Positions 8,671-63,238 of a stretch of 64,000 nucleotides of DNA are shown piece by piece. The notes beneath the pieces were generated by a model. The model made no database searches. It was given only the letters and a program-made list of their open reading frames with translations, and was not told the DNA's origin. Each line of letters begins with the position of its first letter. Within the stretch, counting starts at the first letter, position 1. The stretch is from a virus, in the IMG/VR virus record IMGVR_UViG_3300045988_131721, positions 1 through 64,000 of that record. One strand, written 5' to 3'. A program made the translations under genes and the position numbers.

Positions 8671-8685
8671 AAAATAATTAATAAA
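8671..8685 (+). repeat. 15-mer junction motif AAAATAATTAATAAA
   Basis: Exact copy, placed just upstream of the second tandem promoter. Confidence 0.95.
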
Positions 8686-8701
8686 ATTTTAAAAAAAGTA
8701 T

Positions 8702-8731
8702 TTGACAAATAAGCATAATTCGTACTATCAT
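8702..8731 (+). promoter_or_regulatory. Sigma-A-type promoter, second of the tandem pair
   Basis: TTGACA at 8702-8707, 18-nt spacer, TATCAT at 8726-8731. The same tcgtactatcat and gtattagacaagggag boxes as in the first copy. Confidence 0.55.
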
Positions 8732-8845
8732 TATAATATAAGTATTAGACAAGGGAGAACGCCCAATCGTTCATTAAGTAATAAAAATATAATTTACGGG
8801 ATTAGCTACTCATTAGCTAAAAATAATTAATTAGGAGGAGTAAAA

Positions 8846-9265
8846 ATGAAGGATAAAAAATTAGATTTTTCAAATATGGATATAGAAGAAATATTAAACT
8901 TAGATTTCGACATGGTAGCACCTACAGAACCAGTAACAGAACCAGTGGTTGAATATTTGACAGACATAGAAGAAATAGAAAACAAAATTACAGAAGTCGA
9001 CAGAACAAAAGTCTTAAATTCCAAAGTTCCTTATACAGAATATTTTGAGTCAGAAGAGGAGTTAATAGAAACTTTGAAATTAATTGTTCCAGAAAATGTT
9101 GGGCAACATATAAATGGATTCGCATTCGTTAAAGGATTTTCCAAAACAGTAAGAAACGGAAGAGAACTTTCAAAAAAACAAGTAACACAATGTAAAAGAA
9201 TAGCTAGTCAGATAAAACTTGCATACTTGGAAGAATGCAAAAGACAATTAGGGTATATATTATAA
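8846..9265 (+). CDS. Hypothetical acidic protein (first gene of the plus-strand arm)
   Basis: 139 aa. SD taggagg. N-terminal half very rich in D and E. Confidence 0.7.
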   Translation: MKDKKLDFSNMDIEEILNLDFDMVAPTEPVTEPVVEYLTDIEEIENKITEVDRTKVLNSKVPYTEYFESEEELIETLKLIVPENVGQHINGFAFVKGFSKTVRNGRELSKKQVTQCKRIASQIKLAYLEECKRQLGYIL

Positions 9266-9341
9266 ATATTAAAGAGTTCTAAAGGGTTAACCTCTTAAAA
9301 GCCCTTCTAGTAATAAAATAATAAATTAGGAGGTTTTAAAA

Positions 9342-9776
9342 ATGAAAAAAATAACAGGTGCTAAAATAGATGGAAAAATAGTAAAAGTAATAGAATCAAA
9401 ACCATATGAAGAAGGAAAAATTGAAGTATTTTTCATGTATAACGGTATAACAAGATGTGGAGCAATAGTTTCAGAAGAAGACTTAATAACAGAAAAATTA
9501 ACAGAAATAGAAATAAAAGCTAAAGAATTAATAAATTTAATAAATGAAGAAGTAAATGCTGAAATAGATGTAGATGATTATGACGAATATACATATATAT
9601 ACATAGATGGAAATAATTATATAGTGAATGTACTTATAGATAATGAGGGATATTTATTAGATACGTATAACAAAAACATGGCTGATAAATATAATGATGA
9701 CGAAAATAAATATAAGAATAGAGTAACAAGAAAGACAAGTAAAGGAGTTATAAATTATATAAAAAGATTCATTTAA
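9342..9776 (+). CDS. Hypothetical acidic protein
   Basis: 144 aa. SD taggagg. Confidence 0.7.
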   Translation: MKKITGAKIDGKIVKVIESKPYEEGKIEVFFMYNGITRCGAIVSEEDLITEKLTEIEIKAKELINLINEEVNAEIDVDDYDEYTYIYIDGNNYIVNVLIDNEGYLLDTYNKNMADKYNDDENKYKNRVTRKTSKGVINYIKRFI

Positions 9777-9813
9777 TAATTAATAAAAATAATTAATAAA
9801 AATAATTAATAAA
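9775..9813 (+). repeat. Three overlapping tandem copies of the junction motif (about 12-nt period)
   Basis: Reads aataattaataaaaataattaataaaaataattaataaa, sitting between the stop of 9342-9776 and the SD of 9828. Confidence 0.95.
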
Positions 9814-9827: not shown

Positions 9828-10271
9828 ATGCTAAAGGGAGAAATAAGAAAAGGGACAGTTCGCAAGACAGAAGGACAAGAAAAGAAATATGTAAAACAGT
9901 TCAAAGGCGACGACTATCAAAGATGTATAATCGCAATAAACAACATGCTACATCAACGTATATATGCAAGCCATCACTTAAGAAAAAAATCAACAGTTAG
10001 CTACAATATGAAGGTTATTTGCTCAATGTTAAAAGATGGAGCATACGATATCATAGAGTATAATTACACTAGAGGGAATGGAAGAATATTATTAGAAAGT
10101 TGGGAAACATTTCCAGTAGATATTGACGGAAAAACAGTTAATTGTGTCATGAAGGTTGTCGTTGAACCAAAAACACAAAAAATTATAACAGTATGGTATA
10201 ATAGCGTTGACGACACTCATACAAGTTTAAATATGAAAAGATATAACAAGGACTTAGAAATTGTGTTCTAG
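9828..10271 (+). CDS. Hypothetical protein (weak resemblance to DUF4258/RelE-like small toxin folds)
   Basis: 147 aa. SD aggggga. The H..LRKK...II.Y....R.L...VV.....II.V.Y pattern is only suggestive. Confidence 0.55.
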   Translation: MLKGEIRKGTVRKTEGQEKKYVKQFKGDDYQRCIIAINNMLHQRIYASHHLRKKSTVSYNMKVICSMLKDGAYDIIEYNYTRGNGRILLESWETFPVDIDGKTVNCVMKVVVEPKTQKIITVWYNSVDDTHTSLNMKRYNKDLEIVF

Positions 10272-10324
10272 TCCTTCCAGCTCAATGCTATCATTTATGA
10301 TAATGAAAACAATTAATAAAATTG

Positions 10325-10772: not shown

Positions 10773-10858
10773 TATTAAGCAATGATGGCAAAAATAATTA
10801 ATAAAATTGTTGGCAAATCTCAAATGATAGTAAATTATATTAAATAGGAGTGGTAAAT

Positions 10859-11681: not shown

Positions 11682-11753
11682 TTTTTCTCCTTTGCTCAAG
11701 ACTATTATAAATGATAATAAAAAATAATTAATAAAATTTTAGGAGGTTTTAAA

Positions 11754-11990
11754 ATGAACAACGATTTAATGAGATTAAGAAGTTTAATAGGGAGCGAATT
11801 AGATTATAATGACGTAATTCGTGAAATGATAGATAAAGACGAAGAGGTAATAATCGACAACGTAAATCGTAGTAGCAACTTTGAAGAATATGGACTTTGC
11901 AATTTGTATCTAGTATATTACAACGACCCAATAAGCAGGGCATATGGTATATGGGTTGATGCTAATAATATAATCCGTGTAATATCATAA
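11754..11990 (+). CDS. Hypothetical protein
   Basis: 78 aa. SD taggagg directly after a 15-mer copy. Confidence 0.65.
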   Translation: MNNDLMRLRSLIGSELDYNDVIREMIDKDEEVIIDNVNRSSNFEEYGLCNLYLVYYNDPISRAYGIWVDANNIIRVIS

Positions 11991-12818: not shown

Positions 12819-12878
12819 AAAATAATTAATAAAATTAATAAAAAAGCTCTTGACAACGATAGTTAAATCATATATAAT
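12819..12878 (+). promoter_or_regulatory. 15-mer motif plus a consensus sigma-A promoter
   Basis: Motif at 12819-12833, TTGACA at 12850-12855, 17-nt spacer, TATAAT at 12873-12878. Confidence 0.75.
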
Positions 12879-13455: not shown

Positions 13456-13507
13456 AAAATAATTAATAAAAAAGCTCTTGACAAAATAAAATGATGTGTG
13501 ATATAAT
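13456..13507 (+). promoter_or_regulatory. 15-mer motif plus an extended -10 sigma-A promoter
   Basis: Motif at 13456-13470, TTGACA at 13478-13483, TGaTATAAT ending at 13507. Confidence 0.75.
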
Positions 13508-13818: not shown

Positions 13819-13861
13819 AGGGAGTTAATCCCTTCCAGCTCATAAAAATAATTAATAAGAT

Positions 13862-14418: not shown

Positions 14419-14566
14419 GTTATTATTATATGGTAGTATGGAAAAATCTATACTACCATATATAAAATGATAATAAAAATAATTAATAAAATTATTAAAA
14501 AGTTATTGTAATTTAAAATTAAATATGTTATACTTTAAGTATAATAAAAATAAAGGGGTGGTAAAT

Positions 14567-15091: not shown

Positions 15092-15183
15092 TATTTCAAT
15101 TAAGAAATAATTAATAAGAGGATTAATTAATCCTCTTAAGCTCTTGGCAATGATAGTAAAATATATTAATTGGAGGTGTTACT

Positions 15184-15760: not shown

Positions 15761-15809
15761 AAAATAATTAATAAAACTATTGACAAATGATAACTAAATA
15801 TGATATTGT
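15761..15809 (+). promoter_or_regulatory. 15-mer motif plus a sigma-A-type promoter
   Basis: Motif at 15761-15775, TTGACA at 15780-15785, TGaTATTGT ending at 15809. Confidence 0.6.
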
Positions 15810-16706: not shown

Positions 16707-16778
16707 AAAATAATTAATAAAAATAATTAATAAATTTTTTAAAAGCTCTTGGCAATGATAGTAAAAATAATTAATAAA
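16707..16778 (+). repeat. Three junction-motif copies (two overlapping plus one) around a degenerate promoter
   Basis: Exact copies at 16707-16721, 16720-16734 and 16764-16778, with gctcttggcaatgatagtaaa between them. Confidence 0.9.
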
Positions 16779-16795: not shown

Positions 16796-17407
16796 ATGAT
16801 GGGGAAAAGTGTTAATAAGACCTGGACATCAGACGAAATAAGAAATTACATGAAGGATTTTGTATTAAAAATGGATAAAGATGATAGAGAAACAATTGGT
16901 GATGTAATTGATATTATTCCAATATCAATAGACGGTAGACTTAAATCAAGCATGGGCTATTTTAGTGGCAAATATAAGAGAAGTGGTGAGTTTATATCAC
17001 CAGTGAAATTTAAATTTAGTAAATGGATTAACTCATATGATAATGATACGGTTAAACATATTATCCAACATGAATTAATCCATTTATTGTCTGACAAGAA
17101 ACATGGTAGAAATACAAGTCATTATAAAGAATGGAAAGAACTTTGCTGTAAATACAAAGTGAATGATGATGAATTTTTTACACCTAATCTAGAATTAGAA
17201 AAAGATTATCACCGTTATCATATATATTGTAATGAATGTGGAAAATTAGTTGGCACTAGAGATAGATTATCAAAAGAGAAAATAATTCAATTGTTATTAT
17301 ATGGAAGACATCAAGATGATTATGGTAAATTAAGAATATATGATAATAAAGAAAAAGGATATATTAAATTAAACAATATAATGGTAAATGATGGTGAAAA
17401 TAATTAA
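16796..17407 (+). CDS. SprT-like zinc metalloprotease domain protein
   Basis: HIIQHELIHLL plus YCNECGK. Paralog of 15184-15753. Ends ...GENN with its stop inside the 15-mer. Confidence 0.65.
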   Translation: MMGKSVNKTWTSDEIRNYMKDFVLKMDKDDRETIGDVIDIIPISIDGRLKSSMGYFSGKYKRSGEFISPVKFKFSKWINSYDNDTVKHIIQHELIHLLSDKKHGRNTSHYKEWKELCCKYKVNDDEFFTPNLELEKDYHRYHIYCNECGKLVGTRDRLSKEKIIQLLLYGRHQDDYGKLRIYDNKEKGYIKLNNIMVNDGENN

Positions 17408-17445
17408 TAAAACTGTTGACAAATGATAGTGAAATATGATATAAT
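17397..17445 (+). promoter_or_regulatory. 15-mer motif plus an extended -10 sigma-A promoter
   Basis: Motif at 17397-17411, TTGACA at 17416-17421, TGaTATAAT ending at 17445. Confidence 0.75.
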
Positions 17446-18026: not shown

Positions 18027-18126
18027 TAGTTCAAAAAGATTTTAAAAATTATTAATAAAACCATTGACAAAATGTACCACATGATATATACTTATACATA
18101 TAAGATATAAAGGGGAGGAAAAGATA

Positions 18127-19023
18127 ATGAAAAATGTTAATAACATGGAAAAGGTTATAAATAATTATGTTAAATATCTACAAGATATTAAAAACTTATC
18201 TCCAAAATCTATTAAATCATATATTCCAGTAGTAAAGGAAATGATTAAAGATTGTAACTTTAAAACAATTGAAGATATACAAAACTCTAATGTGGTAATA
18301 TTACAAAACTGGTTGAATAGAAAAAAAAATGAAGGATTAAGCAGTCAAAGTATTAATCGACGTATTGCTAGTTGTAAGAGTTTTTATAGTTATCTATATG
18401 CATTTAGGATTATTAATTTTAATGCTAGTAAGGAATTAAAACAATTAAGAATTGAAAGTAAAGGTAAGACAGGAGATACAGGGCAAGTAGACAAAATAAG
18501 AACTTATTTAGAAAATGAATGTAAAAGAAAACCTAATTATATGAATATGAGAAATAGATTAATCGTTGAAGTCATGCTTAATTGTGCATTGAGAAATAGT
18601 GAATTAAGACAATTAAATATAGATACTATCAATCCAAATACTGGAGAATTTACAGTAATTCAAAAAGGTGGTGGCATTAAACCTTGCGTGTTATCTAGTA
18701 AAACATTACAACTATATAATGAATACATGATAGAACGTAATAGAATCCCTTCTAAGGATAATTCTCTATTCCTTAGTAGTTATAAAAGTAGAATAAGTAT
18801 TGGTGGCTTAGAAAAGCTTATACACAAGATAACAGAGGTCACAGGGTTAAAACTCAATCCCCACGATTTACGTCATATTTCAGCTACAAAATACGTGGAA
18901 GCTGGGTTTAGTTGTGATGAGGTCGCAAAACTACTAGGGCACTCAAGTAGTAATACAACCTTCAGATTTTACTACCATCAAGACATAGATAATAAAAAGA
19001 AAATGGTTGATAATGTGTGGTAA
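18127..19023 (+). CDS. Tyrosine recombinase / phage integrase family (XerC/D-like)
   Basis: N-terminal SAM-like domain. Catalytic-domain boxes ALRNSELRQL, HDLRHISAT and LLGHSSSNTTFRFYYH. Confidence 0.9.
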   Translation: MKNVNNMEKVINNYVKYLQDIKNLSPKSIKSYIPVVKEMIKDCNFKTIEDIQNSNVVILQNWLNRKKNEGLSSQSINRRIASCKSFYSYLYAFRIINFNASKELKQLRIESKGKTGDTGQVDKIRTYLENECKRKPNYMNMRNRLIVEVMLNCALRNSELRQLNIDTINPNTGEFTVIQKGGGIKPCVLSSKTLQLYNEYMIERNRIPSKDNSLFLSSYKSRISIGGLEKLIHKITEVTGLKLNPHDLRHISATKYVEAGFSCDEVAKLLGHSSSNTTFRFYYHQDIDNKKKMVDNVW

Positions 19024-21233: not shown

Positions 21234-22034
21234 ATGAGCAATAAAGTAAAAAAATTATTTGATGAATTAATAGAAAAATATAATTTGAGAGCAATAAAAA
21301 TAGGTGATGAAACATGGTATGCAATGAATGATTTACCATTAAGTAGACAAACTTTATCAAACACAAGAAAGAAACTTGAGGATTTTAGCGTACATTCTAA
21401 ATGTACTCCGAATTTCTTAGAACAAAACACGAAATTGGTAACAAATTCAGAGGTAAAATTAAATGTAATCCGAAACTTTGACAAAGTTAATAATGCGGGT
21501 GAAATATTCGGAAACTTTACAATGATAAATTATATAATCATGAACAGTAGACTTGGTGCAGAATATAAAATAGAAATGATATATCTTTTAGATGAAATAA
21601 GAAGAAATGGATTTTATGTAGATGACAATATATCTAAAGAACAATTAGATTCACTTCAAAATAAACTTAATAAATTAAAGGATAGATTACATTATGAAAG
21701 ACGTAGAAAGGCTTATGGAGCCACTCAGATAGTTAAAAAGATAAACATAGATAATTTGTTACCAAGCACACTATTTAGATATTTAGATGAATATTTGAAT
21801 TTAGGAGATTATACAATAGTAAATAAAAATAGAAGATTTAGACCTAATGATAATTTTGTTAACAAATGTGCTGATTTAGGTGTAGCCAGAATTGGAGTAA
21901 ACAATAATATAATATTCTTTAGTGAATTTGCAGAACAAGTAAATAAAAACAAAGACATCCTTAATATATTGAAAATAATTAATAAAGAAGAATTACAAAT
22001 AAGAGAGAAGGGAATTGAAAACAGAATTAAATAA
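21234..22034 (+). CDS. Hypothetical DNA-binding/antirepressor-like protein (N-terminus paralogous to 25372-25527)
   Basis: 266 aa. Shared NKV..LFDELI.KYNLRAI. Contains an in-frame 15-mer copy at about 21970-21984 encoding KIINK. Confidence 0.6.
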   Translation: MSNKVKKLFDELIEKYNLRAIKIGDETWYAMNDLPLSRQTLSNTRKKLEDFSVHSKCTPNFLEQNTKLVTNSEVKLNVIRNFDKVNNAGEIFGNFTMINYIIMNSRLGAEYKIEMIYLLDEIRRNGFYVDDNISKEQLDSLQNKLNKLKDRLHYERRRKAYGATQIVKKINIDNLLPSTLFRYLDEYLNLGDYTIVNKNRRFRPNDNFVNKCADLGVARIGVNNNIIFFSEFAEQVNKNKDILNILKIINKEELQIREKGIENRIK

Positions 22035-22072: not shown

Positions 22073-22218
22073 GCTTATTTTAAAAAATAATTAATAAAAG
22101 TTGGTATATTTAAACTCCAATCTGTGTATAATATATAAAGAAAATTAATAAAGTTAGTTGTCATTAAGGATATCATATGTTATAATAAGCAAGGCAGACA
22201 ACTAAGGAAGGAGTTAAA

Positions 22219-23150: not shown

Positions 23151-23238
23151 TATTAGTATAGGAGGTGGTTAAATTGAATGTGGATTAAAAATAATTAATA
23201 AAGTTAATAAAATAATAAATAAAATAGGAGGAGATATT

Positions 23239-24087: not shown

Positions 24088-24100
24088 TTAATAAAGTTTC

Positions 24101-24190: not shown

Positions 24191-24280
24191 ATGAAATATA
24201 TAATATGCATAGGTGGTATGATAGAATTGAGTATAATATTTGGATTTCTATTATTTTTATTTGATTTTAGAAATAATTAA
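24191..24280 (+). CDS. 29 aa hydrophobic peptide
   Basis: SD aaagggg. MKYIICIGGMIELSIIFGFLLFLFDFRNN, with its stop inside a 15-mer copy. Confidence 0.4.
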   Translation: MKYIICIGGMIELSIIFGFLLFLFDFRNN

Positions 24281-24347
24281 TAAAACAGTTGATAAATTAT
24301 AATAAATATCATATAATGTATATATAAGATAAAAACAAGGGGGATAA

Positions 24348-48804: not shown

Positions 48805-48812
48805 TAAACCTA

Positions 48813-49037: not shown

Positions 49038-49205
49038 ATGAGTATAGAAGAATTAAAAGATTTATTACATAAGTTAGACTCTAATGAAGTATGTGAGTTA
49101 TTATCTAATAAACAATGTGAGAAGTGCTTTTGTTACACCAAAGAAAAAGAATGTATCATTAAAATATTTAGCGAGGGAATGTTAAATGAAATAGGAAGTA
49201 AATAA
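49038..49205 (+). CDS. 55 aa Cys-containing protein
   Basis: SD aaggaagtg. Confidence 0.5.
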   Translation: MSIEELKDLLHKLDSNEVCELLSNKQCEKCFCYTKEKECIIKIFSEGMLNEIGSK

Positions 49206-49235
49206 AAATAATTAATAAAAAGGAGAAATATTAAT

Positions 49236-49595: not shown

Positions 49596-49684
49596 TACTA
49601 ATATAAGAGGTGATTAAAATGTAAAATATATGAAGTGCCAAAATAAAATATTAATAAAAATAATTAATAAAGGTGGTGGTGATT

Positions 49685-50389
49685 ATGAATTTTGAAGATT
49701 TTATAATTGATAAGAATATAGAAATGAAATCAAATGAGCTAAATGAATTATTAAATACCTGGAGGACTGAAGAAGGCAAAAAATCTAAAGAACATAAAGA
49801 ATTCATGAGAGATATAAGAAAAGAAATGAAATTATTAGAATCGTTAGGTTTTGAGGTTGGTGGAAATTTTCCACCGACTACTTATATAGATAAACAAGGA
49901 AAAGAAAGAGGTTGCTATCTATTAAATAAAGAAGGAATATTACAAATGAGTACAAAGGAATCAGCTTATGTTAGAGCAAAAGTAATAGACTATATTAGAA
50001 CCCTTGAAACTTATATAGAAGAAACTGGACAGTCTGAAGAATTTAAATATTACAGAAGAACAGGTAAGATTATAAGACGTGGATTAACCGATACAATTAA
50101 AAAGGTATATAGAAATACGGATAAATTTATATATGCAAAATATACTAATTTAGTTTATACAATAGTATTCGATAAATCAGCTAGTGAAATAAGACTTGGG
50201 AAAGGTTTAAAGAAAAACCAAGCATTAAGAGATAATTTCACATCAGAAGAATTAGATGAAATATTGGAAGTTGAAAATAAATTAAAATCATTAATTGAAG
50301 TGTATGAAATGGAAGGTGTATGTTTAGACTTAATATATGAGAGAGCTAAAAATACTATATTAAGAGTATATCATAAAATAGCAATATAA
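49685..50389 (+). CDS. Rha-family phage regulatory protein
   Basis: HKEFMRDIRK...YIDKQGKERGCYLLNKEGILQMSTKES..VRAKVIDYIRTLE fits the Rha core. Confidence 0.6.
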   Translation: MNFEDFIIDKNIEMKSNELNELLNTWRTEEGKKSKEHKEFMRDIRKEMKLLESLGFEVGGNFPPTTYIDKQGKERGCYLLNKEGILQMSTKESAYVRAKVIDYIRTLETYIEETGQSEEFKYYRRTGKIIRRGLTDTIKKVYRNTDKFIYAKYTNLVYTIVFDKSASEIRLGKGLKKNQALRDNFTSEELDEILEVENKLKSLIEVYEMEGVCLDLIYERAKNTILRVYHKIAI

Positions 50390-50428
50390 AATATTAATAA
50401 AAATAATTAATAAAGGAGAGATGTGTAT

Positions 50429-51571
50429 ATGAGTAATTTAAATTTCGTTATGATTGGAAAATTATCAATAGCACCAGATAGACCAAATAAACCAGCATTT
50501 AGTGATAAGTTATTAGATAGTGGGTGCAATATCCGAGAGTTAAACCTACAAATGAAATGCGACAAAGATAATTTTAATCTTCAAATAAAATCTTTTATGA
50601 GTAATGCAAAGAAAAACAGTGATGGAAGCATAAATGTAGATAATAGTATAATATATACTATATTAGACAAAGGTGATAAAAAGTTTGAATCTGTTAACTT
50701 TAAATATAAAGATAAAGAAAAATATGAAGACGATATTGCAAACTTCAAGAGATATGTATTCGTAGACGGAGACGATAGATTAGAATGTTCTAACACCTTC
50801 GATTATGCTACTGCTGTATATACAACATTAAAATCAGATGCTTATAAAGATAAAGTATTTAGAGTTGATGGTGAAATAGAATATTCAAATTATAAGAATC
50901 CTAAAACTGGAATAGAAAATACATATACCAATTATAATGTTGAACGTATATATTTAGTTAATGACGATACAGAACAAAAAGCAACTTGTACGCTAGATGT
51001 ATATATGACAGCAGATTGTATAGACGATACCGATATAGAGGAAACAGGTAGTTTTAAACTTATGTGTTATATACCTCAATATATGAGTAAGAAAAAAGGA
51101 GAGTTTGGATATTATCAAGTATTAGATTATCCTTTAAATATTGATAAAGATAAACAATCTAAAAAATTCAATGCATTACAAAAATTATTAACAAGTAATT
51201 TTGAAGATAATGAGTTGTGTAAAATGGGATTCAAATGTAATTTAATAAATAGGATTAAGGAAGTCGATTTTGATATAAAAACAATGATAACCGATGAAGA
51301 GCGAGAACTATTAGAATTTAAAATAATTACAGAAAGTGAATTAGAAGCAAAATATGGTAAAGGACAAGGTGGCAGAGAAACCAAAATGGAAGTTGAAGGT
51401 ATAACTCGTGGATACACTACAGGAGCAATACCAGTACCTCTAACATTAAGTCAGTTATTAAGTAAAGGTGATGAAGAATTAAAAGAAAATAAGATATTAA
51501 CAAGTGATGAAAACGATGACTTAGATTTATTCTCAAACGATGATGACGAGGACGAATTATTCGATTTTTAG
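50429..51571 (+). CDS. Putative atypical single-stranded DNA-binding protein
   Basis: Starts NFVMIGKLSI (SSB-like) and ends in an acidic tail, DDLDLFSNDDDEDELFDF, like SSB C-terminal tips. Sits beside a Sak4-like ATPase. Confidence 0.4.
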   Translation: MSNLNFVMIGKLSIAPDRPNKPAFSDKLLDSGCNIRELNLQMKCDKDNFNLQIKSFMSNAKKNSDGSINVDNSIIYTILDKGDKKFESVNFKYKDKEKYEDDIANFKRYVFVDGDDRLECSNTFDYATAVYTTLKSDAYKDKVFRVDGEIEYSNYKNPKTGIENTYTNYNVERIYLVNDDTEQKATCTLDVYMTADCIDDTDIEETGSFKLMCYIPQYMSKKKGEFGYYQVLDYPLNIDKDKQSKKFNALQKLLTSNFEDNELCKMGFKCNLINRIKEVDFDIKTMITDEERELLEFKIITESELEAKYGKGQGGRETKMEVEGITRGYTTGAIPVPLTLSQLLSKGDEELKENKILTSDENDDLDLFSNDDDEDELFDF

Positions 51572-51633
51572 ATTGAAAATAATTAATAAAATTATAAAGA
51601 GGGATTAATTCCCTCTAGGAAGGAGTTGGTAAT

Positions 51634-51902: not shown

Positions 51903-51998
51903 CGATAATATAAGAGGTGATTAAAATGTAGAATATATTAGTTATAAGATATAAATAAAAATAACAAATTAAAAATAATTAATAAAAAGGTGATTGAG

Positions 51999-53252
51999 AT
52001 GTATCAGAATGAGGAACATAAGAGAGGAGTAATTGAAAGGGGAGATGGTTACGAATATATAGGAAGTTATAAATTAAATGAAGTGACTATAGATGGTAAG
52101 AATAAAAAACATAATGCTACTTATATTAGAGTTAAATGTCCATATTGCAGAAGTGAATATGACGTGGCTTTGAGCAGTTTTGTAGGAAAATTAAAAACAA
52201 AATGTACCAATTGTTGCAATACTTATGAAAATTCTTTTGCTTATTATATTGAAAAAGAATTAAATGAAAAATTAGAGGATTATTGGGACTTTGAGGAGAA
52301 TGGAAGAAGAGGTATAAATCCTTATTGTGTAACTAAACATAATAGCAGTATTAAAATTTCAATTTGGTGTAAAAATAAGTGGTATCATGGTAGTTATTTT
52401 ACTACCACATCACATTTTACAGAAAATAAAAGATGCCCTTACTGTGCTAATCAAAAGGTTCACCCGTTAGATAGTTTTGGACAATATTTAATTAATACCT
52501 ATGGAAAAGATGCCATAAAAAAATATTGGAGTGATAAAAATATAAATTCCCCTTTTAAAATAAGCAAAGGAAGTGGAAAACCAATATATTTATATTGTCA
52601 AGATAAAGATTATCATAATGATTATGGAGGTTATTCTGTAGTTCCATATCAATTTATGAGAGGGGATAGATGTCCATATTGTACACATAAATCGGGAAAA
52701 GTTCATCCTAAAGATTCATTTGGAAACCTGTATCCCGAAAAGGCTAAATATTGGTCACCCAATAATAAAAAATCACCTTTTGAAGTAACTTCTAGAAGTG
52801 GTAAAAAATATAAATTTATTTGTGAAAAATGTGGTGAAGAGTTTGAAAGAGATTTAGCGAATCTAAATAGAAATAATATTGGAATTGTGTGTAAAAAATG
52901 TAATTCTTCACAATTAGAAACAAAAACTAAAAATATATTAGAAAAACATAATATTAAATATGAAATAGAAAAATCATTTTTTAATTTATATGGTGTAGGT
53001 GGTAAATTATTGAGATTTGATTTTTATTTATCAGATTATAATTTACTAATTGAATGTCAAGGAACTCAACATAAATCATGGCAGAAAACTTGGGTGACAA
53101 AAGAAGATTTTGAAAGACAATTAGAACATGACAAAAGAAAGAAACAATATGCTAAAGAAAATAATATCGATTTATTAGAAATTTGGTATTATGATATAGA
53201 TAATATAGAAAATATATTGATGCATAGATTGAATTTAAATAAAAATAATTAA
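51999..53252 (+). CDS. Homing-endonuclease-like protein, family B copy 2
   Basis: Start moved to MYQNEEHK. Same zinc-ribbon repeats and LRFDFYLSDYNLLIECQGTQH C-domain as 47329-48804. Ends NKNN in the 15-mer. Confidence 0.55.
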   Translation: MYQNEEHKRGVIERGDGYEYIGSYKLNEVTIDGKNKKHNATYIRVKCPYCRSEYDVALSSFVGKLKTKCTNCCNTYENSFAYYIEKELNEKLEDYWDFEENGRRGINPYCVTKHNSSIKISIWCKNKWYHGSYFTTTSHFTENKRCPYCANQKVHPLDSFGQYLINTYGKDAIKKYWSDKNINSPFKISKGSGKPIYLYCQDKDYHNDYGGYSVVPYQFMRGDRCPYCTHKSGKVHPKDSFGNLYPEKAKYWSPNNKKSPFEVTSRSGKKYKFICEKCGEEFERDLANLNRNNIGIVCKKCNSSQLETKTKNILEKHNIKYEIEKSFFNLYGVGGKLLRFDFYLSDYNLLIECQGTQHKSWQKTWVTKEDFERQLEHDKRKKQYAKENNIDLLEIWYYDIDNIENILMHRLNLNKNN

Positions 53253-53256
53253 TAAA
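53242..53256 (+). repeat. 15-mer junction motif supplying the stop codon and followed directly by an SD
   Basis: Reads aaa aat aat taa taaa aggagag. Confidence 0.95.
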
Positions 53257-53270: not shown

Positions 53271-54359
53271 ATGATTAAAATACAAATGAATGAAACAAAA
53301 AAAGGGATGGAACAACTTAGAATTTATTTAAGAGGCGAAAGCAAGACTGGCAAAAGCACGTTATTCAGAGATATGATACTAGAAAAATATAATGGAGATG
53401 CTAGTAAAGGATTGCTTTGTCAAATTGGAAATGAAACAGGTGCGAATTTTCTAAGCGATTTACAAACAACACATATAGATAATTACAAAGATTTAATTGA
53501 ATTACAAAAACTCCTAATAACTGGTAAAGGCAAGGAACATAATATAGAAATGGTATGTTTCGATACAATTGACGAAATAACTGAAATATTTGAAAAGGAA
53601 GTTTGCAGACTTTCACAAATAGAAACAGGTAAGGTTTGTAAAACAATCAATAGTGCGTATTCGGGCTATGGTATGGGAATGGAAAAGACTAAATCATTAA
53701 TGAAATCTTATTTCACTAAACTTCATCGTGCTGGATTTGGAATTTTTTGTATCAGCCACAGTAAGGTAAAAAATATAAAACCAAAAGGCTGTAATGAAGA
53801 TGAGAGTTATATGGTGTTATCTTCATCATTATCTAATGCTTATAATAGTGTATTTGAAGATATATTTGATGCAATATTAACTATAACAGTTGAAAGAAAT
53901 GTAGTTGATGGAAAAATAGAAAACACTGAAAGAAGATTATATTTCAGAAGTGATGGATATGTTATGGGAGGTTGTAGATTTAATAATAAGGTAATACCTC
54001 AATACATAACTATCAATGACGACTCAAGACAATTTGCAAGAGATTTTATCAATACATTAGAAGATGCTATGAGAAATTCTTCTTCTACACCATTAACACA
54101 AGAACAATTTAAAGAATTACAAAAAGAAGAAAAGAAACAAGCTGAAAAAGATTTAAAACAAGTACAACAAGAAGTTGAACAACAAGAAAAGGAAGAACAA
54201 CAAAAATCAGTAGATGAATTAAAATCTCAATTAAAAGACAAACTTAAAGATACAAATGCTAAGAATATAGTAAAAGAATTCATGAAAGAAAAAGGTGTCA
54301 AAAGTGTTGCATCATTAGATGCTGAACAATTACAAGAAATATTAGCTAAATTACAATAA
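53271..54359 (+). CDS. Sak4-like / AAA_24-type RecA-fold ATPase (recombination mediator)
   Basis: Walker A GESKTGKS and Walker B MVCFDTIDE. Coiled-coil Q/E/K-rich C-terminus. Confidence 0.6.
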   Translation: MIKIQMNETKKGMEQLRIYLRGESKTGKSTLFRDMILEKYNGDASKGLLCQIGNETGANFLSDLQTTHIDNYKDLIELQKLLITGKGKEHNIEMVCFDTIDEITEIFEKEVCRLSQIETGKVCKTINSAYSGYGMGMEKTKSLMKSYFTKLHRAGFGIFCISHSKVKNIKPKGCNEDESYMVLSSSLSNAYNSVFEDIFDAILTITVERNVVDGKIENTERRLYFRSDGYVMGGCRFNNKVIPQYITINDDSRQFARDFINTLEDAMRNSSSTPLTQEQFKELQKEEKKQAEKDLKQVQQEVEQQEKEEQQKSVDELKSQLKDKLKDTNAKNIVKEFMKEKGVKSVASLDAEQLQEILAKLQ

Positions 54360-57100: not shown

Positions 57101-57322
57101 ATGGAAAATATATTAGAGTTTCAAATGAGAAAAGAGCAGGAATATTTAAATAATTTGTTAGATAGTATAAATAATTTATTAAATAATGAATTTGAATTTA
57201 GCGAAGATACTAAGGCGCAATTAGAAATTGAGAAAAAAATAATATTGGCAAAATTAAGCGTATGGAAAACAGTAGAGAGGGCTGTAGAAGAATTAAAGAA
57301 CGATATTATATTTGAAAAATAA
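57101..57322 (+). CDS. Hypothetical coiled-coil protein
   Basis: 73 aa. SD aaggagg. Confidence 0.6.
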   Translation: MENILEFQMRKEQEYLNNLLDSINNLLNNEFEFSEDTKAQLEIEKKIILAKLSVWKTVERAVEELKNDIIFEK

Positions 57323-57348
57323 TTAATAACAAAATAGGAGTTGATATT

Positions 57349-58499: not shown

Positions 58500-59558
58500 G
58501 TGATTATTATAAAAAGTAAAAGAAGAATAATTTATGAAATATATTTTCCTGCCTTCTGTAAAGACTTAAAGGATTTAACAAATAAAACATCATATTTCAA
58601 GGAACTAGGAGTAACAACCTTATGGCTGACTCCTATATTTCCTTCTTGTAACCAACATGGATACGATATAATAGATTACACAGATATTAAAAAAGAATAC
58701 GGAACATTAGAAGATTTCGATAGATTTGTAGAAGTAGCACATGAAAATAACTTAGAAGTTTTATTAGATTTAGTATTATGTCATACAAGTACACAAAATG
58801 AATTATTTAAAGAAAGTATAAAAGGGCAAAATGATTGTTACTTCTGGAGTGATAAACAACAAAATAATCAATGGAGAATATGTCATGATAATCAGAAATA
58901 TTATTTAGCAAAATGGAGTTATGACATGCCACAGTTAAACAATCAATCTGAAACAGTAAGAGATATGATAAAGGACATAATAAAGTTTTGGTTAATAGAC
59001 CATAATATAGACGGATTTAGACTGGATGCCATAATCTATGCATCTGGTAATTCAATTGAATTTTGGAAATGGTTTTGTGACGAAGTTTATAAAATAAAAC
59101 CAAACGCTTATATAGTTGGAGAAGCTTGGGATACATATGAAATAAGTAATAAATATGCCAAAGAAACAGGAATGAAAAGTTTCAATTTTGAGCAAGCAGG
59201 GTGGATAAAACATTCCTTAAACACAGGAAATCCATTAGTAATTAAAAATGACCCAAAATATGATGTTAACTTCTTGTGTAATCATGATATGAGCAGAATT
59301 AGCAATTCTGTAGGACATGATATGAATAAGTTATTTAAAGCCGTTGATATGTTATTTTCATTAGATGGTGATGTTTGTATATATTACGGTGATGAAATAA
59401 ATATGGGATTAAACCAAGATTGTCATGTTGAACAAGGAGGATACGGCGACTGGAAAGTTAGAGGAAAAATGGACTGGCATGAAGCAAAAAGACAAAGAAA
59501 AGACCCTAATAGCTTGTTTAATTATTATAAAAAGAAAATAAAGGAATATAAAAAATAA
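58500..59558 (+). CDS. Glycoside hydrolase family 13 (alpha-amylase catalytic domain) protein, short form
   Basis: GH13 regions DLVLCHTS, DGFRLDA, GEAWD and FLCNHDM. The start is uncertain: no in-frame ATG, only GTG/ATT/ATA near the SD aagagg. Confidence 0.7.
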   Translation: MIIIKSKRRIIYEIYFPAFCKDLKDLTNKTSYFKELGVTTLWLTPIFPSCNQHGYDIIDYTDIKKEYGTLEDFDRFVEVAHENNLEVLLDLVLCHTSTQNELFKESIKGQNDCYFWSDKQQNNQWRICHDNQKYYLAKWSYDMPQLNNQSETVRDMIKDIIKFWLIDHNIDGFRLDAIIYASGNSIEFWKWFCDEVYKIKPNAYIVGEAWDTYEISNKYAKETGMKSFNFEQAGWIKHSLNTGNPLVIKNDPKYDVNFLCNHDMSRISNSVGHDMNKLFKAVDMLFSLDGDVCIYYGDEINMGLNQDCHVEQGGYGDWKVRGKMDWHEAKRQRKDPNSLFNYYKKKIKEYKK

Positions 59559-59566
59559 TTAATAAA

Positions 59567-59800: not shown

Positions 59801-59840
59801 AAAGTACAGATTGAAAATAATTAATAAAGGGGTGATAAAT

Positions 59841-61400
59841 ATGAAAATATTATACGAAGAATTGCCAGACTATCTACAAAAAAATAGAAAAAGCATTGAA
59901 GGAACTGTTTTGGGAGTTTTATTCCAAGACATAATGAGTGTTAAAGAATATAACTTAGACGATATATTTATAACACATGAAGGAATGGTATTATATAGAA
60001 TCGTTAAAACGCTTTCAGATAATAATGTATTGAAAGTTAGTGATTTAGATATTAAACTTCAATGTGAACCTTCTCTAGTTAAAGAGTATACTGACTTAGG
60101 TGGTTTTAAAATGGTAGAAATATTAATGAGAACAACAGAATTAGAAAATGCCAATTCATACATTGATTCGTTGCTTAAACATAATATGTTAATATCATTT
60201 TGGGAAGATGGGTTGGATTTAACAAAAGAGATAACTATAACAACTAAAAAAGGTGAAACTCAAATTAGTTGGTTAAATTTGGCTGATAAAATGACTACGG
60301 ATGAATTATTAAATTTTAAAGAAAGTAGAGACACTTCTTATCTGCCAATTAGTATTAATTCGGATGTAAAGGAACACGTTGGTGAAATAAGCATGGACTT
60401 TATAGAAAACTTAGAAAATGGTAATGAAGTTGGATTTTTATTTGAAAATGTCTTATCTTCTAAGTTTTTACCAACTATAAGTAAAGAAATACTAGGATTA
60501 AGAAAGAGAACATTGAATTTTATTGCCAGTTCTATAAATATTGGGAAAAGTACATTATTATCTAATCTAGCCTTATCTTTAGCATCTAATGGGTATAGAA
60601 CGTTGTTGATGACAAACGAGGAAGACATAAGTGCTTTCAAGATTAAATTCCTAACTTATTTGGTAAATAATGAGGTAGGATATAAAAAAATAAATCAAAA
60701 GAAAATTAAATCTGGTGGATTAACTGACGAAGATAAACTAGCACTTAGGGAGGCAAGAAATATATATAATGAAAAAATAGCAGACAATTTAATAATTGTA
60801 AGTACTAATACAATGAACATGGGTAGTATGAAAAAAATAATTAGGAAATATTCATTAAGTAGTAAAGGTTTAGATGTGTTTCTATTTGATACATTCAAAA
60901 TGAGTAACGGCACAGATGATGATTGGAAAGCCTTAGTAAAACAATCTCGTGAAATCCATGAATTAACAAAGATTTATGATATATGTGCTGTAATGACTTA
61001 TCAATTAGCAATGAGTAATCAAGGAGCTTTATTTCTAGATATCTCAATGATGGCGAATAGTAAACAAATTGGGGAAGTGGCTAGTGAAATTTTTTTAATG
61101 AGAACTTTATATAAAGAAGAGTTAGATAAGGATTCTAAAGCATATTGTAAACCTTTTAAAAGAGTAAAGAAAGGCGATAGATGGGTCGAAGAAGAGGTTG
61201 AGTTGAGTCCAGATTCAAATTATAGGATATTTTTTATAGGAAAATCGAGAAGTACAACTGTGTCAAGCGATAGTAATACAGCTTTCATATTACATATGAA
61301 TACATATAGCACAAAGATTAGTGAAGTATGTTTTTGCCACCCACAACGAATGAATATAAACAATATTAATCAACAAAATAATAAATTTGGTAAAAAGTAG
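59841..61400 (+). CDS. dnaB: DnaB-like replicative DNA helicase
   Basis: Start moved to the ATG after SD aaagggg. Walker A SSINIGKST and Walker B-like VFLFDTF. Length and N-domain are typical of DnaB. Confidence 0.7.
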   Translation: MKILYEELPDYLQKNRKSIEGTVLGVLFQDIMSVKEYNLDDIFITHEGMVLYRIVKTLSDNNVLKVSDLDIKLQCEPSLVKEYTDLGGFKMVEILMRTTELENANSYIDSLLKHNMLISFWEDGLDLTKEITITTKKGETQISWLNLADKMTTDELLNFKESRDTSYLPISINSDVKEHVGEISMDFIENLENGNEVGFLFENVLSSKFLPTISKEILGLRKRTLNFIASSINIGKSTLLSNLALSLASNGYRTLLMTNEEDISAFKIKFLTYLVNNEVGYKKINQKKIKSGGLTDEDKLALREARNIYNEKIADNLIIVSTNTMNMGSMKKIIRKYSLSSKGLDVFLFDTFKMSNGTDDDWKALVKQSREIHELTKIYDICAVMTYQLAMSNQGALFLDISMMANSKQIGEVASEIFLMRTLYKEELDKDSKAYCKPFKRVKKGDRWVEEEVELSPDSNYRIFFIGKSRSTTVSSDSNTAFILHMNTYSTKISEVCFCHPQRMNINNINQQNNKFGKK

Positions 61401-61413
61401 GTGACAAACCTAT

Positions 61414-62442
61414 ATGAAAGAGTATTTAAAAAATAATCCAGAACAAATTGAAAAAATATTAAGTTATTACAATTATCATAGTATTAATATAACAGATAAA
61501 GAGATTAGGTGTGCAAAAGTAGGAGGAGATAACCCTAGTGGCTGGAGAATCAAATTAAATGATAATTTATCAGCTACAGACTTTACAACGTCTTATAACG
61601 GTGACCTATTCGGTTTAATAGCTACTCATACAGGTTTGACTTATAGAGAAGTTATCAAAACAATTACAATAATGTTAGGTAAGAAAATAGAAGGTAATTA
61701 TCAACCAGAGGAAGAGGTACTATTTGATGGTTTCTTCGATGACTTATATATTCCATATGAAGATGAAGAAAAGGAAGTGACTTATGACGAAAGTGTTTTA
61801 GATAAATATAATAATGGTTATAAATGGTTTAAACGTTTTGCAGATGATGGTATATTACCTTCAAGTCAGCTGAAATTCCAAATAGGATTCGATAAGGGGA
61901 GTAATAGGCTTATTATTCCTTGGAGGAATGAAAATGGAAAGCTAGTGGGGACTATGGGCCGTATAGATTCGGATGAGCCTACGAATTATAAATACCTTCC
62001 ACTTGTAGCATTCTCTAAGCACAAATTTCTATACGGCTTGTACCAAAACAGGACATACATCAAAGAAAGTAAGGAAGTGTTTATATTTGAAAGTGAGAAG
62101 AGTGTGATGCAATGTGATAGCTTTGGAGTGCATAATGCAGTCGCATTAGGCGGTAATAGTATTTCTACTACTCAAGTTGAAAAGTTATTAAAAATAGGAG
62201 TTGAACATTTTATAATCGCATTAGATGAAGGATTAGACACAGAAATAATTAAAAAAAATATTAAAACTATCAAATCATGTTGTTTTATGAGAGATATTAA
62301 AATAGGGTTTATTTTAGATAAAGACAATAAATATATGATGAAAGGTAGTAAGGTCTCGCCTACAGACCAAGGAGGGGAAATATTTAAAAAATTGATAAAA
62401 GAATGTTTAATAATTAATAAAGGGATGATGAAATATGAGTAG
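61414..62442 (+). CDS. Toprim-domain DNA primase
   Basis: Toprim signature VFIFESEKSVMQCDSFGVHNAVALGG and FIIALDEGLD. No canonical zinc finger seen. Confidence 0.55.
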   Translation: MKEYLKNNPEQIEKILSYYNYHSINITDKEIRCAKVGGDNPSGWRIKLNDNLSATDFTTSYNGDLFGLIATHTGLTYREVIKTITIMLGKKIEGNYQPEEEVLFDGFFDDLYIPYEDEEKEVTYDESVLDKYNNGYKWFKRFADDGILPSSQLKFQIGFDKGSNRLIIPWRNENGKLVGTMGRIDSDEPTNYKYLPLVAFSKHKFLYGLYQNRTYIKESKEVFIFESEKSVMQCDSFGVHNAVALGGNSISTTQVEKLLKIGVEHFIIALDEGLDTEIIKKNIKTIKSCCFMRDIKIGFILDKDNKYMMKGSKVSPTDQGGEIFKKLIKECLIINKGMMKYE

Positions 62443-63214
62443 AAAAACAACAGATAGAACTGGTGAGAAAAGATTAAACAACTTCGGGAGTGAAATGGTT
62501 ATCGTAGATTATAGAGGATGTATGGACGTTGATGTATACTTTCCAGAATACGATTGGGTTTATAAAAGTGTAACATATCAAAAGTTTAAAGACGGAGGTG
62601 TAAAATGTCCATATGAAAGAAGTGTATATGGGGTTGGCTATTTTGGGAATGGTGAATATAAAGCGTGGGAAAATGGTAAAAATACTAGAATTTATAATAC
62701 GTGGTATGACATGTTGAAAAGATGTTACGATAAAGAATATCATAAAAAACAACCTACATATAAAAATTGTACAGTTTGCGATGAATGGTTAAACTTCCAA
62801 AATTTTGCTAGGTGGTATGAAGAGAATTATTATGAAATAGAAGGTGAAGTAATGTGTTTAGATAAAGATATTTTATTTAAAGGTAATAAAATTTACAGTC
62901 CTGAAACTTGCGTAATTGTACCACAAGCTATTAATAAATTATTCACTAAGAGACAAAATGATAGAGGTGATTCGGCTATAGGTACGAGTCCTGTAGATGG
63001 TAAATATATGGTAAGATGTCACATGATTAATCCTAAAACTGGTAAATCTAAAAGAAAATATTTAGGAATTTATGATACTCAAGAGAAAGCATTTAAAATA
63101 TACAAGTATTACAAAGAAAAGAATATAAAAATGGTAGCAGATTATTTCAGAGAACAGATACCAGACAAATTATATGATGCACTATATAATTATGAAGTAG
63201 AGATAGATGATTAA
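62435..63214 (+). CDS. Homing-endonuclease-like protein, family A copy 3
   Basis: Overlaps the primase 3' end by 8 nt. A 15-mer core (62410-62421) and an SD are embedded in the primase coding sequence. AP2-like GKYMVRC...GKSKRKYLGIYDTQEKAFKIY. Confidence 0.6.
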   Translation: MSRKTTDRTGEKRLNNFGSEMVIVDYRGCMDVDVYFPEYDWVYKSVTYQKFKDGGVKCPYERSVYGVGYFGNGEYKAWENGKNTRIYNTWYDMLKRCYDKEYHKKQPTYKNCTVCDEWLNFQNFARWYEENYYEIEGEVMCLDKDILFKGNKIYSPETCVIVPQAINKLFTKRQNDRGDSAIGTSPVDGKYMVRCHMINPKTGKSKRKYLGIYDTQEKAFKIYKYYKEKNIKMVADYFREQIPDKLYDALYNYEVEIDD

Positions 63215-63238
63215 AAATAATTAATAAGGAGTGATTTT

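Follow-up and report, generated by a model that had tools for sequence, protein, structure and literature searches.

SPbeta-like phages are controlled by a master repressor known as MrpR, YopR or SroF. MrpR binds a 15-bp element, SPBRE, at about 10 promoter regions, as seen by chromatin affinity purification sequencing (ChAP-seq) and electrophoretic mobility shift assay (EMSA), and it represses PaimR and PyosX about 5-fold; a box adjacent to the -35 element was experimentally repressive at PaimR (PMC10516654). In phi3T, SroF is reported to bind as a monomer, wrapped around an asymmetric A-tract box of 26 bp, and its sites are scattered genome-wide (10.1101/2025.11.27.690993). Here we analyse a stretch of 64,000 nucleotides of viral DNA (IMG/VR record IMGVR_UViG_3300045988_131721, positions 1 to 64,000; hereafter the window) in which one AT-rich 15-mer, AAAATAATTAATAAA, built around the core ATAATTAATAA, recurs at gene junctions on the strand that is transcribed. 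We consider it likely that this word, (T)AAAAATAATTAATAAA, 15-17 bp in length, serves as operator for a master repressor of the SroF/MrpR/YopR type that the phage itself encodes at 22219-23091, and its best explanation is as the counterpart of SPBRE in SPbeta and of the SroF box in phi3T.

Two other systems of asymmetric words serve for comparison. The stoperators of Cluster A mycobacteriophages (L5 gp71 type) are asymmetric 13-mers bound by a monomeric two-domain repressor; more than 20 such sites lie at promoters and in short intergenic spaces, and their function requires that orientation tracks transcription (PMC9283540). The start-associated sequence (SAS) of Cluster K phages is a 13-bp asymmetric word found in one orientation 3-7 bp from the starts of non-structural genes. 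It sometimes holds the stop codon of the upstream gene and is kept across subclusters before unrelated genes, and its function is unknown (PMC3203893).

Abundance, orientation and context of the junction word

The core ATAATTAATAA was found in 57 exact copies in the window, 55 on the plus strand (spanning 8674-63227) and 2 on the minus strand (159-169 and 1500-1510). This machine count agrees with a preliminary description of the same DNA, which had reported about 55 plus-strand copies and just two reverse copies, both in the arm transcribed leftwards. The excess over chance claimed there is equally clear: 100 dinucleotide-preserving shuffles gave a mean of 2.62 and a maximum of 8 copies of the core, and the full AAAATAATTAATAAA was present 47 times (45 on the plus strand, 2 on the minus strand) against 0.03 expected. 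Copies with one mismatch added 12 on the plus strand and 0 on the minus strand. As a control, 41 kb of an unrelated C. botulinum phage-plasmid with 27% GC contained 1 copy; AT-richness therefore does not account for the motif count, and comparable counts in unrelated AT-rich clostridial DNA, which would have undermined the earlier claim, are ruled out. The strand bias also survived the machine count, with orientation following transcription in every case (55/55 plus copies in the plus arm, 2/2 minus copies in the minus arm) and in all related loci.

A logo built from 531 unique contexts across the phage family defines the conserved unit as a 16-17-mer, T(69%)A(71%)AAA-ATAATTAATAA-A. Across these contexts no conserved flanks were seen outside the unit and the logo shows no dyad symmetry; the word is instead a mirror repeat (AAATAAT followed by TAATAAA). 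A literature search with the motif string returned unrelated matches only.

Gene calls were heuristic and gave 81 plus-arm genes with 80 junctions, of which 43 (54%) carry the exact core, so that the motif sits at about half of the junctions and not, as had been proposed, at almost every one. What lies downstream is tightly constrained. In 52% of the 531 family contexts a tetramer resembling a Shine-Dalgarno sequence (SD) begins within 6 nt, with a peak at 0, and the offsets to TTGAC fall into two sharp peaks, one at 4-5 nt (68 contexts) and the other at 15-16 nt (25 contexts), which differ by about one helical turn; in the latter class the gap is occupied by the promoter's own T-tract/A-tract between motif and -35 box. 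Each of the window's 8 perfect TTGACA-N16-18-TATAAT promoters is closely preceded by the motif (7 exact, 1 with one mismatch), and the leaders of the sigma-A promoters are very short, since only 10-13 nt separate TATAAT from the SD. The two contexts distinguished earlier, namely the UP-element position of near-consensus promoters and fusion to an SD, thus stand. The proposed supply of stop codons holds in part: 23 stop codons fall inside the 17-mer, only 23 of the 57 copies overlap a stop, and the proteins that end in two asparagines through the motif number nine rather than at least ten. Given that overlap with stops is so limited whereas the spacing to the downstream SD or -35 box is tight, the supply of stops seems to follow incidentally from the presence of a word rich in TAA at compact junctions. 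The tandem arrays and the copies inside coding sequences that had been listed were both recovered (Table 1).

The word is also conserved in relatives. An exact-pattern scan of IMG/VR yielded at least 17 contigs of 114-140 kb that carry the motif at 0.5-1.4 copies per kb, essentially on one strand per locus, which is the gene strand. Even two IMG/VR contigs in which the beta-CASP protein is only 37-38% identical to that of the window contain the word 13 and 17 times in 22 kb, never on the strand opposite the genes. In the opposite arm of the relatives, towards the terminase and structural genes, the word is still present at 0.2-0.9 copies per kb; there too it follows the gene strand, and most copies are fused to an SD.

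A candidate reader of the word and rival explanations

The protein encoded at 22219-23091 was modelled with AlphaFold2 (AF2) at a predicted local distance difference test score (pLDDT) of 89. In a Foldseek search with this model the top 7 PDB matches were phi3T SroF (9rgl; DNA-bound 9rd5), YopR (8bpz, 8bj6) and MrpR (8a0a), with probability 1.0 and E values from 2e-8 to 1e-6, while Cre and integrases reached only about 1e-3. A profile of 18 homologues (alignment A1) matched 9rd5_H, the DNA-bound phi3T SroF chain, at E=3.8e-6, and in a phmmer search of PDB the best-ranked chains were those of YopR, MrpR and SroF, although these matches were weak. All 37 full homologues (37/37) carry a precomputed match to PF22823 (PF22823.3), MrpR_C_cat. 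Among the aligned homologues the C-terminal domain contains no invariant Arg or His, and the protein fits a recombinase fold that lost catalysis. Across the motif-bearing IMG/VR contigs it is the most uniformly conserved multi-hit protein (93-98% identity, n=7), compared with 35-41% for the beta-CASP protein and 32-96% for the sigma-like proteins of the same loci. Its gene is adjacent to a tyrosine integrase gene in three related loci (L118, L137 and L138) and lies 3 kb from it in the window, a pairing that resembles yopP...yopR of SPbeta.

The junction word appears to vary together with the lineage of this protein. The IMG/VR contigs whose repressor is 94-98% identical to that of the window carry the identical 15-mer, as do L116 and L117 at 59-60% identity (26 copies in 21 kb in L116). 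At 48% identity (L119) the core AATAATTAATA is kept and the 5' flank is altered. The three most distant loci have strand-locked junction words of their own, with 0-2 copies of the window core: GTAYAAAATAAATAAA in L137 (repressor 40% identical), where its core AAAATAAATAA occurs 13 times on the plus strand and 0 times on the minus strand against about 1.2 expected; AATTAATAAAATAAA in L138 (39%); and AATAAATATAAAATTAATAAA in L118 (37%), which lacks the window core and matches the phi3T box at 15/16 positions. In all lineages the words occupy the same SD-fused and -35-adjacent contexts.

The same architecture is found at the boxes that are bound in SPbeta and phi3T. SPBRE as re-derived from the SPbeta genome (L113-L115) reads (t)AGACAAAtAC-AAAWAATATGTATATAA and is present in about 13 copies, all in the sense orientation of the downstream gene, including the leftward yonP and yonO. 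These copies are fused to an SD (yopM, yopV and the second yonX copy) or precede the -35 box by 3 nt (aimR, yonX), and some form the spacer and -10 element behind TAGACA. A scan of 50 kb of phi3T (L139, 50-100 kb) likewise gave some 20 or more boxes, every one in the sense direction and in one of these two contexts; written as its reverse complement, GAATAAAAATAAAATTA, the phi3T box has TAAAAATAA..TTA in common with the TAAAAATAA--TTAATAAA of the window. This suggests that transcription-locked polarity and SD fusion are general properties of the SPBRE/SroF box class, properties that we did not find stated in the consulted parts of PMC10516654 and 10.1101/2025.11.27.690993. The earlier statement that no single known element class explains all features of the motif is consequently not supported, since these boxes share both the strand lock and the two contexts, and the window encodes a homologue of their repressor.

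The motif statistics, the positions of the copies, their conservation in the family, the homology of the protein and the architecture shared with the bound SPbeta and phi3T boxes are established; from these we infer that the protein encoded at 22219-23091 binds the word and represses by binding. One repressor monomer, acting as an integrase-like two-domain clamp, would encircle one asymmetric A-tract-rich site, which would thereby have polarity. Just upstream of the -35 box, where copies stand at essentially every strong sigma-A promoter, bound repressor would deny RNA polymerase its upstream contacts. At promoter-less genes whose copies are flush with the SD, the bound clamp would act as an oriented roadblock to read-through polymerase, in the manner of a stoperator. 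Roughly one site per kb would together keep a temperate phage or phage-plasmid of about 135 kb silent, and the copy at 22084-22098 has a position that would fit autoregulation of the repressor-like gene. Stop-codon supply, UP-like composition and cassette breakpoints would then be side effects of a TAA- and A-tract-rich word at very compact junctions, and in the absence of active repressor the UP-like composition and the AU-rich leader may bring further advantages of a secondary kind.

Several observations weigh against such an operator array. The sequence identity of the protein to SroF and YopR is only 13-16%, and a local Pfam-A hmmscan of it gave no match at E<=0.01, even though every homologue in the large protein collection has precomputed PF22823.3, a discrepancy between tools; with the local scan negative, the evidence for homology consists of the structure prediction, the profile search and the precomputed Pfam matches of homologues. 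SroF contacts 24 bp, compared with the 16-17 bp conserved here, and tandem copies 13 nt apart cannot all hold a 24-bp footprint. The density of the motif is about 5-10 times that in SPbeta and about twice that in phi3T. Promoters with the 15-16-nt gap would escape steric occlusion, and the abutment of 52% of copies on an SD is also predicted by a role at the RNA or translational level. Finally, the co-variation sample comprises about five lineages, and any other reader of the motif would diverge in parallel.

Among explanations that dispense with this repressor, a dual cis element read by the host without any phage protein, serving as an UP element on DNA (through the alpha C-terminal domain) and as an unstructured AU-rich leader or enhancer 5' of the SD on mRNA, seems to us unlikely. 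It would account for the frequent SD fusion described above and for the position of the word at promoters with a 4-5-nt gap, where it spans about -55 to -41 and its terminal AAA lies on the proximal UP subsite of the established UP consensus; in relatives the word also precedes probable high-expression late genes. Neither role of such an element would require one exact 15-mer; the window nevertheless has 47 identical copies, and phages whose proteins are 35-60% identical share the word unchanged. Moreover, it changes between lineages of similar composition, promoter and SD types, and binding of the repressor to the corresponding words of SPbeta and phi3T has been demonstrated by experiment. 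A pure UP element fails in addition because the majority of copies are SD-fused and because promoters of the 15-16-nt class carry their own T-tract/A-tract between motif and -35 box. We hold it very improbable that the word, whose AATAAT matches TATAAT at 5/6 positions, is a -10-only phage promoter, on the model of T4 late promoters, that is read by the sigma-like proteins encoded at 27197-27748 and 27777-28343 and starts transcripts from its 3' edge. These proteins do match Sigma70_r2, r4 and ECF models, the sigma-A promoters of the window have very short leaders, and some L119 copies coincide with the -10 element of a real TTGACA-17-TATAAT promoter. Yet the 531 contexts show no -35-like or other upstream conservation, the SD begins 0-1 nt past the word and leaves a leader of only about 12-18 nt, and the sigma-like proteins are 32-96% identical where the word is invariant. 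The same junction architecture occurs without an annotated sigma gene in the retrieved stretches of SPbeta (most of the genome) and phi3T (50 kb), and without a Pfam sigma match in the 10 kb shown for L118 or L137; for the sigma-like proteins a second strand-locked cassette, CATAGGTAATTT-N13-TGTTAATA, is the better candidate. A site for RNA processing or binding, in which the mRNA word AAAAUAAUUAAUAAA is read at cistron boundaries by a phage RNA-binding protein or nuclease such as the beta-CASP/RMMBL protein encoded at 45414-47300, we regard as a long shot. The domains are present in that protein and the motif is strand-locked with transcription between cistrons; the nuclease, however, is only 35-41% identical in phages with the identical motif, the copy at 22084-22098 lies between an intrinsic terminator and a promoter, and others are placed ahead of the point where transcription starts. 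In the stretches of SPbeta and phi3T that were retrieved no beta-CASP gene is annotated, yet the same architecture is present there, with a word that is bound on DNA.

Recombination raises a different set of possibilities. That the word is mainly a shared boundary for the exchange, insertion, deletion or reordering of cassettes between co-infecting relatives, by short-homology or site-specific recombination, is improbable in our estimation, although its traces are visible. The cassette 42753-43548 (SD, gene and motif) is absent from L097 and L098, with the junction exactly inside the 15-mer and no other flanking homology; cassettes 49672-50399 and 50415-51575 stand in opposite order in L097, which also has an extra gene at 49205; and 22 of 86 ends of high-scoring segment pairs (HSPs) fall within 5 nt of a copy, where 2.2% are expected at random and 11.3% at intergenic positions. 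This enrichment is only about 2-fold over intergenic positions and is inflated because the shared word stretches alignments to itself. Half of a junction, which measures about 30 nt, consists of motif, and viable crossovers will in any case land there; 15 bp is short for general homologous recombination; and the tight -35 spacing and the coupling to every strong promoter would be left unexplained. There is real support for taking cassette breakage at the motif as a consequence of the motif and not as its primary function. We would likewise give little credence to a combined arrangement, in which the word is also the exchange point of an integron-like cassette system and the SroF-like protein, or the integrase encoded at 18127-19023 working with it, docks at the boundaries. 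Insertion, excision and reordering of SD, gene and motif as one unit, precisely at the 15-mer, would account for the motif-to-motif indel 42753-43548 and for the swapped cassettes at 49.7-51.6 kb between near-identical relatives. Imperfect inverted repeats that fold into a hairpin site, as in the attC sites of integrons, were not found at the cassette boundaries, where the word has no dyad and its flanks are not conserved. Of the candidates offered in the preliminary description, a protein recognition site on DNA is therefore favoured, a pure UP element fails and a module boundary becomes a secondary effect.

Four further candidates were rejected. A YonO-type RNA polymerase promoter is set aside because YonO uses a single late promoter in SPbeta, and a three-frame stop module because the word has TAA in only two frames. 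Pairing with the 3' tail of 16S rRNA could lengthen the SD helix by no more than the final AAA of the word, and this leaves the conservation of 15 nt unexplained. A Chi- or KOPS-like signal of replication polarity, an idea prompted by the divergence of the arms from the DnaA-box region and by an FtsK-like gene, does not suit a word fixed to the nucleotide relative to SD and -35 box, and polarity in SPbeta and phi3T follows transcription units.

The replicon and its motif copies

The window has a GC content of 25%, and both GC skew and gene orientation switch at a non-coding stretch of 2 kb (6543-8560) that is probably the replication origin. Within it are two TTATCCACA DnaA boxes (at about 7160 and about 7325), repeats of CTAGTTATCAACAAG and of TAGTAATATCAACG and numerous inverted repeats rich in A and T, and a Rep3 initiator gene (2634-3590) and the FtsK-like gene (4657-5787) lie nearby. 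Matches to PHROG and Pfam comprise the Rep3 initiator, the FtsK-like ATPase, ParM-like ALP_N, integrase, DNA ligase, DnaB helicase and HNH endonucleases, together with the SPbeta-specific domains YonV_C, YorH, YopX and YonG_N, and human-gut metagenomes contain contigs of 100-140 kb that are identical to the window or nearly so. On this basis we read the window as about half of an uncultivated SPbeta-like temperate human-gut phage or phage-plasmid of about 135 kb. A megablast search with 10 kb against the phage collection gave no match, tblastn against phages and plasmids found only distant relatives with 25-45% identity, and a scan of genome contigs with the 628-aa beta-CASP protein returned one irrelevant Sphingobacteriaceae metagenome-assembled genome (MAG) without the motif. 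Rfam and tRNA scans of the window gave no matches. The motif copies and the two genes discussed above are listed in Table 1.

Table 1 Motif copies and associated genes in the window (+n nt, distance downstream; NN*, two asparagines and the stop codon; ranges without further description are genes)
Position	Strand	Feature	Setting
158-172	-	exact 15-mer	leftward arm; hairpin then
1499-1513	-	motif copy	SD 1 nt beyond; start of 285-1484(-)
8671-8685	+	motif copy	A-tract, then TTGACA 16 nt on
9773-9813	+	3 tandem copies, 13-nt period	first overlaps stop of 9342-9776; last 2 nt from SD of 9828-10271
10306-10320	+	1-mismatch copy AAAACAATTAATAAA	perfect TTGACA-17-TATAAT promoter 4 nt downstream
10791-10805	+	motif copy	TTGGCA at +4 nt
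11721-11735	+	motif copy	SD at +5 nt (11754-11990)
12819-12833	+	motif copy, half-copy and A-tract	perfect-promoter -35 at +16 nt
13456-13470	+	motif copy	perfect-promoter -35 at +7 nt
13845-13859	+	variant (..AAG)	TTGACT at +7 nt
14476-14490	+	motif copy	weak -35 TTGTAA at +15 nt
15104-15118	+	variant GAAATAATTAATAAG	hairpin next, then TTGGCA
15761-15775	+	motif copy	TTGACA at +4 nt
16707-16734	+	tandem pair (2 copies), 13-nt period	TTGGCA 14 nt beyond pair
16764-16778	+	motif copy	after TTGGCA-N9; SD at +9 nt (16796-17407)
17397-17411	+	motif copy	NN* stop of 16796-17407; perfect-promoter -35 at +4 nt
18045-18059	+	1-mismatch copy AAAATTATTAATAAA	TTGACA-17-TATACT 4 nt downstream
18127-19023	+	bona fide tyrosine integrase gene	upstream of repressor-like gene
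21972-21986	+	in-frame copy (KIINK)	within coding sequence 21234-22034; no gene start after
22084-22098	+	motif copy	between intrinsic terminator and promoter region of repressor-like gene
22219-23091	+	candidate motif reader	290-aa SroF/MrpR/YopR-family protein, integrase-like fold
23188-23223	+	exact copy and degenerate second copy (AAAATAATAAATAAA)	then SD of 23239-24087
24081-24095	+	motif copy	holds stop of 23239-24087; terminator-like hairpin after
24270-24284	+	variant GAAATAATTAATAAA	TTGATA at +4 nt
24653-24667	+	variant TAAATAATTAATAAT	holds stop of 24348-24659; TTGACA at +1 nt
25337-25351	+	motif copy	holds stop of 25131-25343
25521-25535	+	motif copy	TTGACA at +5 nt
26835-26849	+	variant (..AAT)	NN* stop of 26414-26845; SD at +3 nt
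27103-27117	+	motif copy	TTGACT at +15 nt; upstream of sigma-like gene 27197-27748
27738-27752	+	motif copy	NN* stop of 27197-27748; then SD of 27777-28343
28333-28347	+	motif copy	NN* stop of 27777-28343; SD flush
28768-28782	+	motif copy	TTGATT at about +5 nt, extended -10
29633-29647	+	motif copy	perfect-promoter -35 at +4 nt
29873-29887	+	motif copy	SD flush (29901-30320); upstream stop overlaps 5' edge of motif
30701-30715	+	motif copy	SD at +1 nt (30730-30909)
30909-30923	+	motif copy	SD flush (30936-31688)
32728-32742	+	motif copy	perfect-promoter -35 at +4 nt
35354-35368	+	motif copy	TTGACA at +5 nt; mosaic breakpoint vs L097 and L098
35872-35886	+	variant (..AAG)	NN* stop of 35418-35882
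36548-36562	+	motif copy	NN* stop; SD flush (36575-37282); breakpoint vs L098
37282-37296	+	motif copy	perfect-promoter -35 at +5 nt
41687-41701	+	motif copy	NN* stop of 41113-41697; TTGACA at +5 nt
41876-41890	+	motif copy	SD at +1 nt (41907-42734); downstream of CATAGGTAATTT cassette
42738-42752	+	motif copy	left edge of cassette 42753-43548
43549-43563	+	motif copy	right edge of cassette 42753-43548; SD at +3 nt
45142-45156	+	motif copy	hairpin next, then SD (45210-45341)
48794-48808	+	motif copy	NN* stop of 47329-48804; perfect-promoter -35 at +4 nt
49205-49219	+	motif copy	SD at +1 nt; extra gene inserted here in L097
49657-49671	+	motif copy	SD flush; edge of cassette reordered in L097
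50400-50414	+	motif copy	SD flush; edge of cassette reordered in L097
51576-51590	+	motif copy	hairpin, then SD; cassette edge
51972-51986	+	motif copy	SD at +1 nt (HNH gene 51999-53252)
53242-53256	+	motif copy	NN* stop; SD flush (53271-54359)
57316-57330	+	variant (..AAC)	holds stop of 57101-57322; SD at +5 nt
59552-59566	+	motif copy	holds stop of upstream gene; hairpin after
59814-59828	+	motif copy	SD flush (DnaB-like gene 59841-61400)
62407-62421	+	variant TTAATAATTAATAAA, in frame	3' end of coding sequence 61414-62442; SD of overlapping 62435-63214 flush
63214-63228	+	variant (..AAG)	overlaps stop of 62435-63214 and next SD

Some of the genes and cassettes between these copies have features of their own. 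Over 49672-51575, compared with L097 15262-17679, the pRha-like gene 49685-50389 and the gene 50423-51571 are swapped and novel genes lie between them in L097, which nearby is otherwise 92-99% identical to the window. A multi-copy gene family is represented at 31952-32728, 42855-43544 (its 5' end apparently frameshifted at 42765) and 62435-63214, with about 45 tblastn matches across the loci of the phage family. Its members have the N-terminus GRNKIDRIGE... and the C-terminus VEIDD*, and an L119 homologue has a faint AP2 match; they are likely free-standing homing-endonuclease-like mobile genes, and one copy is a present/absent cassette bounded by motif copies. The sigma-like genes 27197-27748 and 27777-28343 are adjacent, their products both end in EIKNN* via the motif, and their paralogues are many and divergent across the family. 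The protein encoded at 45414-47300 is a 628-aa beta-CASP/RMMBL nuclease with a metallo-beta-lactamase fold (RNase J/CPSF73-like), conserved in position across the family at 35-41% identity.

The second strand-locked cassette has the form CATAGGTAATTT-N13-TGTTAATA-...-AATATAAG-AGGTGATTAAA-ATG and is located at 19036, 34310, 41778, 49564, 51871 and 59672 on the plus strand and at 2334 and 2208 on the minus strand; it also occurs in L002 and L003. In at least 3 copies a stop follows directly after the ATG (an ATG-TAA or ATG-TAG mini open reading frame), and about 45 nt further on come the 15-mer and a real gene. The cassette may serve the two phage sigma-like proteins as a promoter, or else may be a leader or attenuator. 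Next to the switch region, a duplicated unit at 8544-8789 combines a promoter (8544-8593 / 8682-8731) with a downstream 53-nt repeat, TATAAGTATTAGACAAGGGAG..CCCAAT (8624-8676 / 8737-8789); it has no open reading frame and no Rfam match, and may be a small RNA or leader. On the minus strand, 3596-4657 holds two tandem pairs of small genes (60 aa and 64 aa, repeated) directly downstream of the FtsK-like gene, which are kept in L110-L112.

A distant phage-plasmid, C. botulinum plasmid p1 (L140, NZ_CP063960.1 20069-61133), has its own strand-locked AT-rich word, (T)AAAAATAAATTAAAAT, which occurs 8-10 times on the gene strand and never on the opposite one, either 14-22 nt upstream of TTGACA or near SDs. 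Architectures of this kind may be widespread in large low-GC temperate phages.

Comparison with known systems

If the word is indeed an operator, the integrase-fold SroF/MrpR system, studied so far only in SPbeta and phi3T, reaches well beyond Bacillus and occurs in a widespread uncultivated family of human-gut phages of about 135 kb. It would also follow that the system can run at a stoperator-like density, with about one oriented site per kb, at promoters and ribosome-binding sites. This would suggest that two unrelated folds (SroF and L5 gp71) converged on the use of a monomer, an asymmetric site, transcription-locked polarity and silencing of the whole genome. In practical terms, the word is a cheap signature with which to find and orient such phages in metagenomes and an aid in calling gene starts, and the pairing of repressor clade and operator could predict immunity groups.

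The resemblance to UP elements concerns composition and place: both are A/T-rich and lie at about -57 to -41, and the motif offsets of 4-5 and 15-16 nt are one helical turn apart. UP elements, however, are degenerate and confined to promoters, whereas the motif is an exact word (47 identical copies), most copies of which stand without a promoter. The SAS differs in that it includes the SD itself, has a proposed translational role, shows no link to a -35 box and has no known cognate protein. Closer in mechanism are the stoperators, which are likewise asymmetric, transcription-oriented sites at promoters and in short intergenic spaces, and which provide the closest model for how the SD-fused copies might act. 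The likeness is one of mechanism and not of membership: the stoperator repressor combines a helix-turn-helix (HTH) with a stoperator domain, whereas the candidate in the window is integrase-like and not of the L5 gp71 type, and stoperators are GC-rich sites of phages with actinobacterial hosts, in contrast to the AT-rich motif described here.

The closest counterparts are the SPBRE/SroF boxes. Like the motif, they are asymmetric, A-tract-rich and multi-copy, their sense strand is the gene strand, they lie 3-5 nt upstream of a -35 box or are fused to an SD, and they are accompanied by a gene for a homologous integrase-fold repressor. Unlike them, the window has a different word with a shorter conserved core (16-17 bp vs 24-26 bp contacted), at a density of about 1 per kb; the corresponding figure is about 0.1 for SPbeta and about 0.4-0.5 for the early region of phi3T. 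In relatives of the window phage the motif also extends into the late (terminase/structural) arm, and the host would be a gut bacterium with 25% GC in place of Bacillus. The element class is thus already known; what is new here is the phage family, the word and the much higher density.

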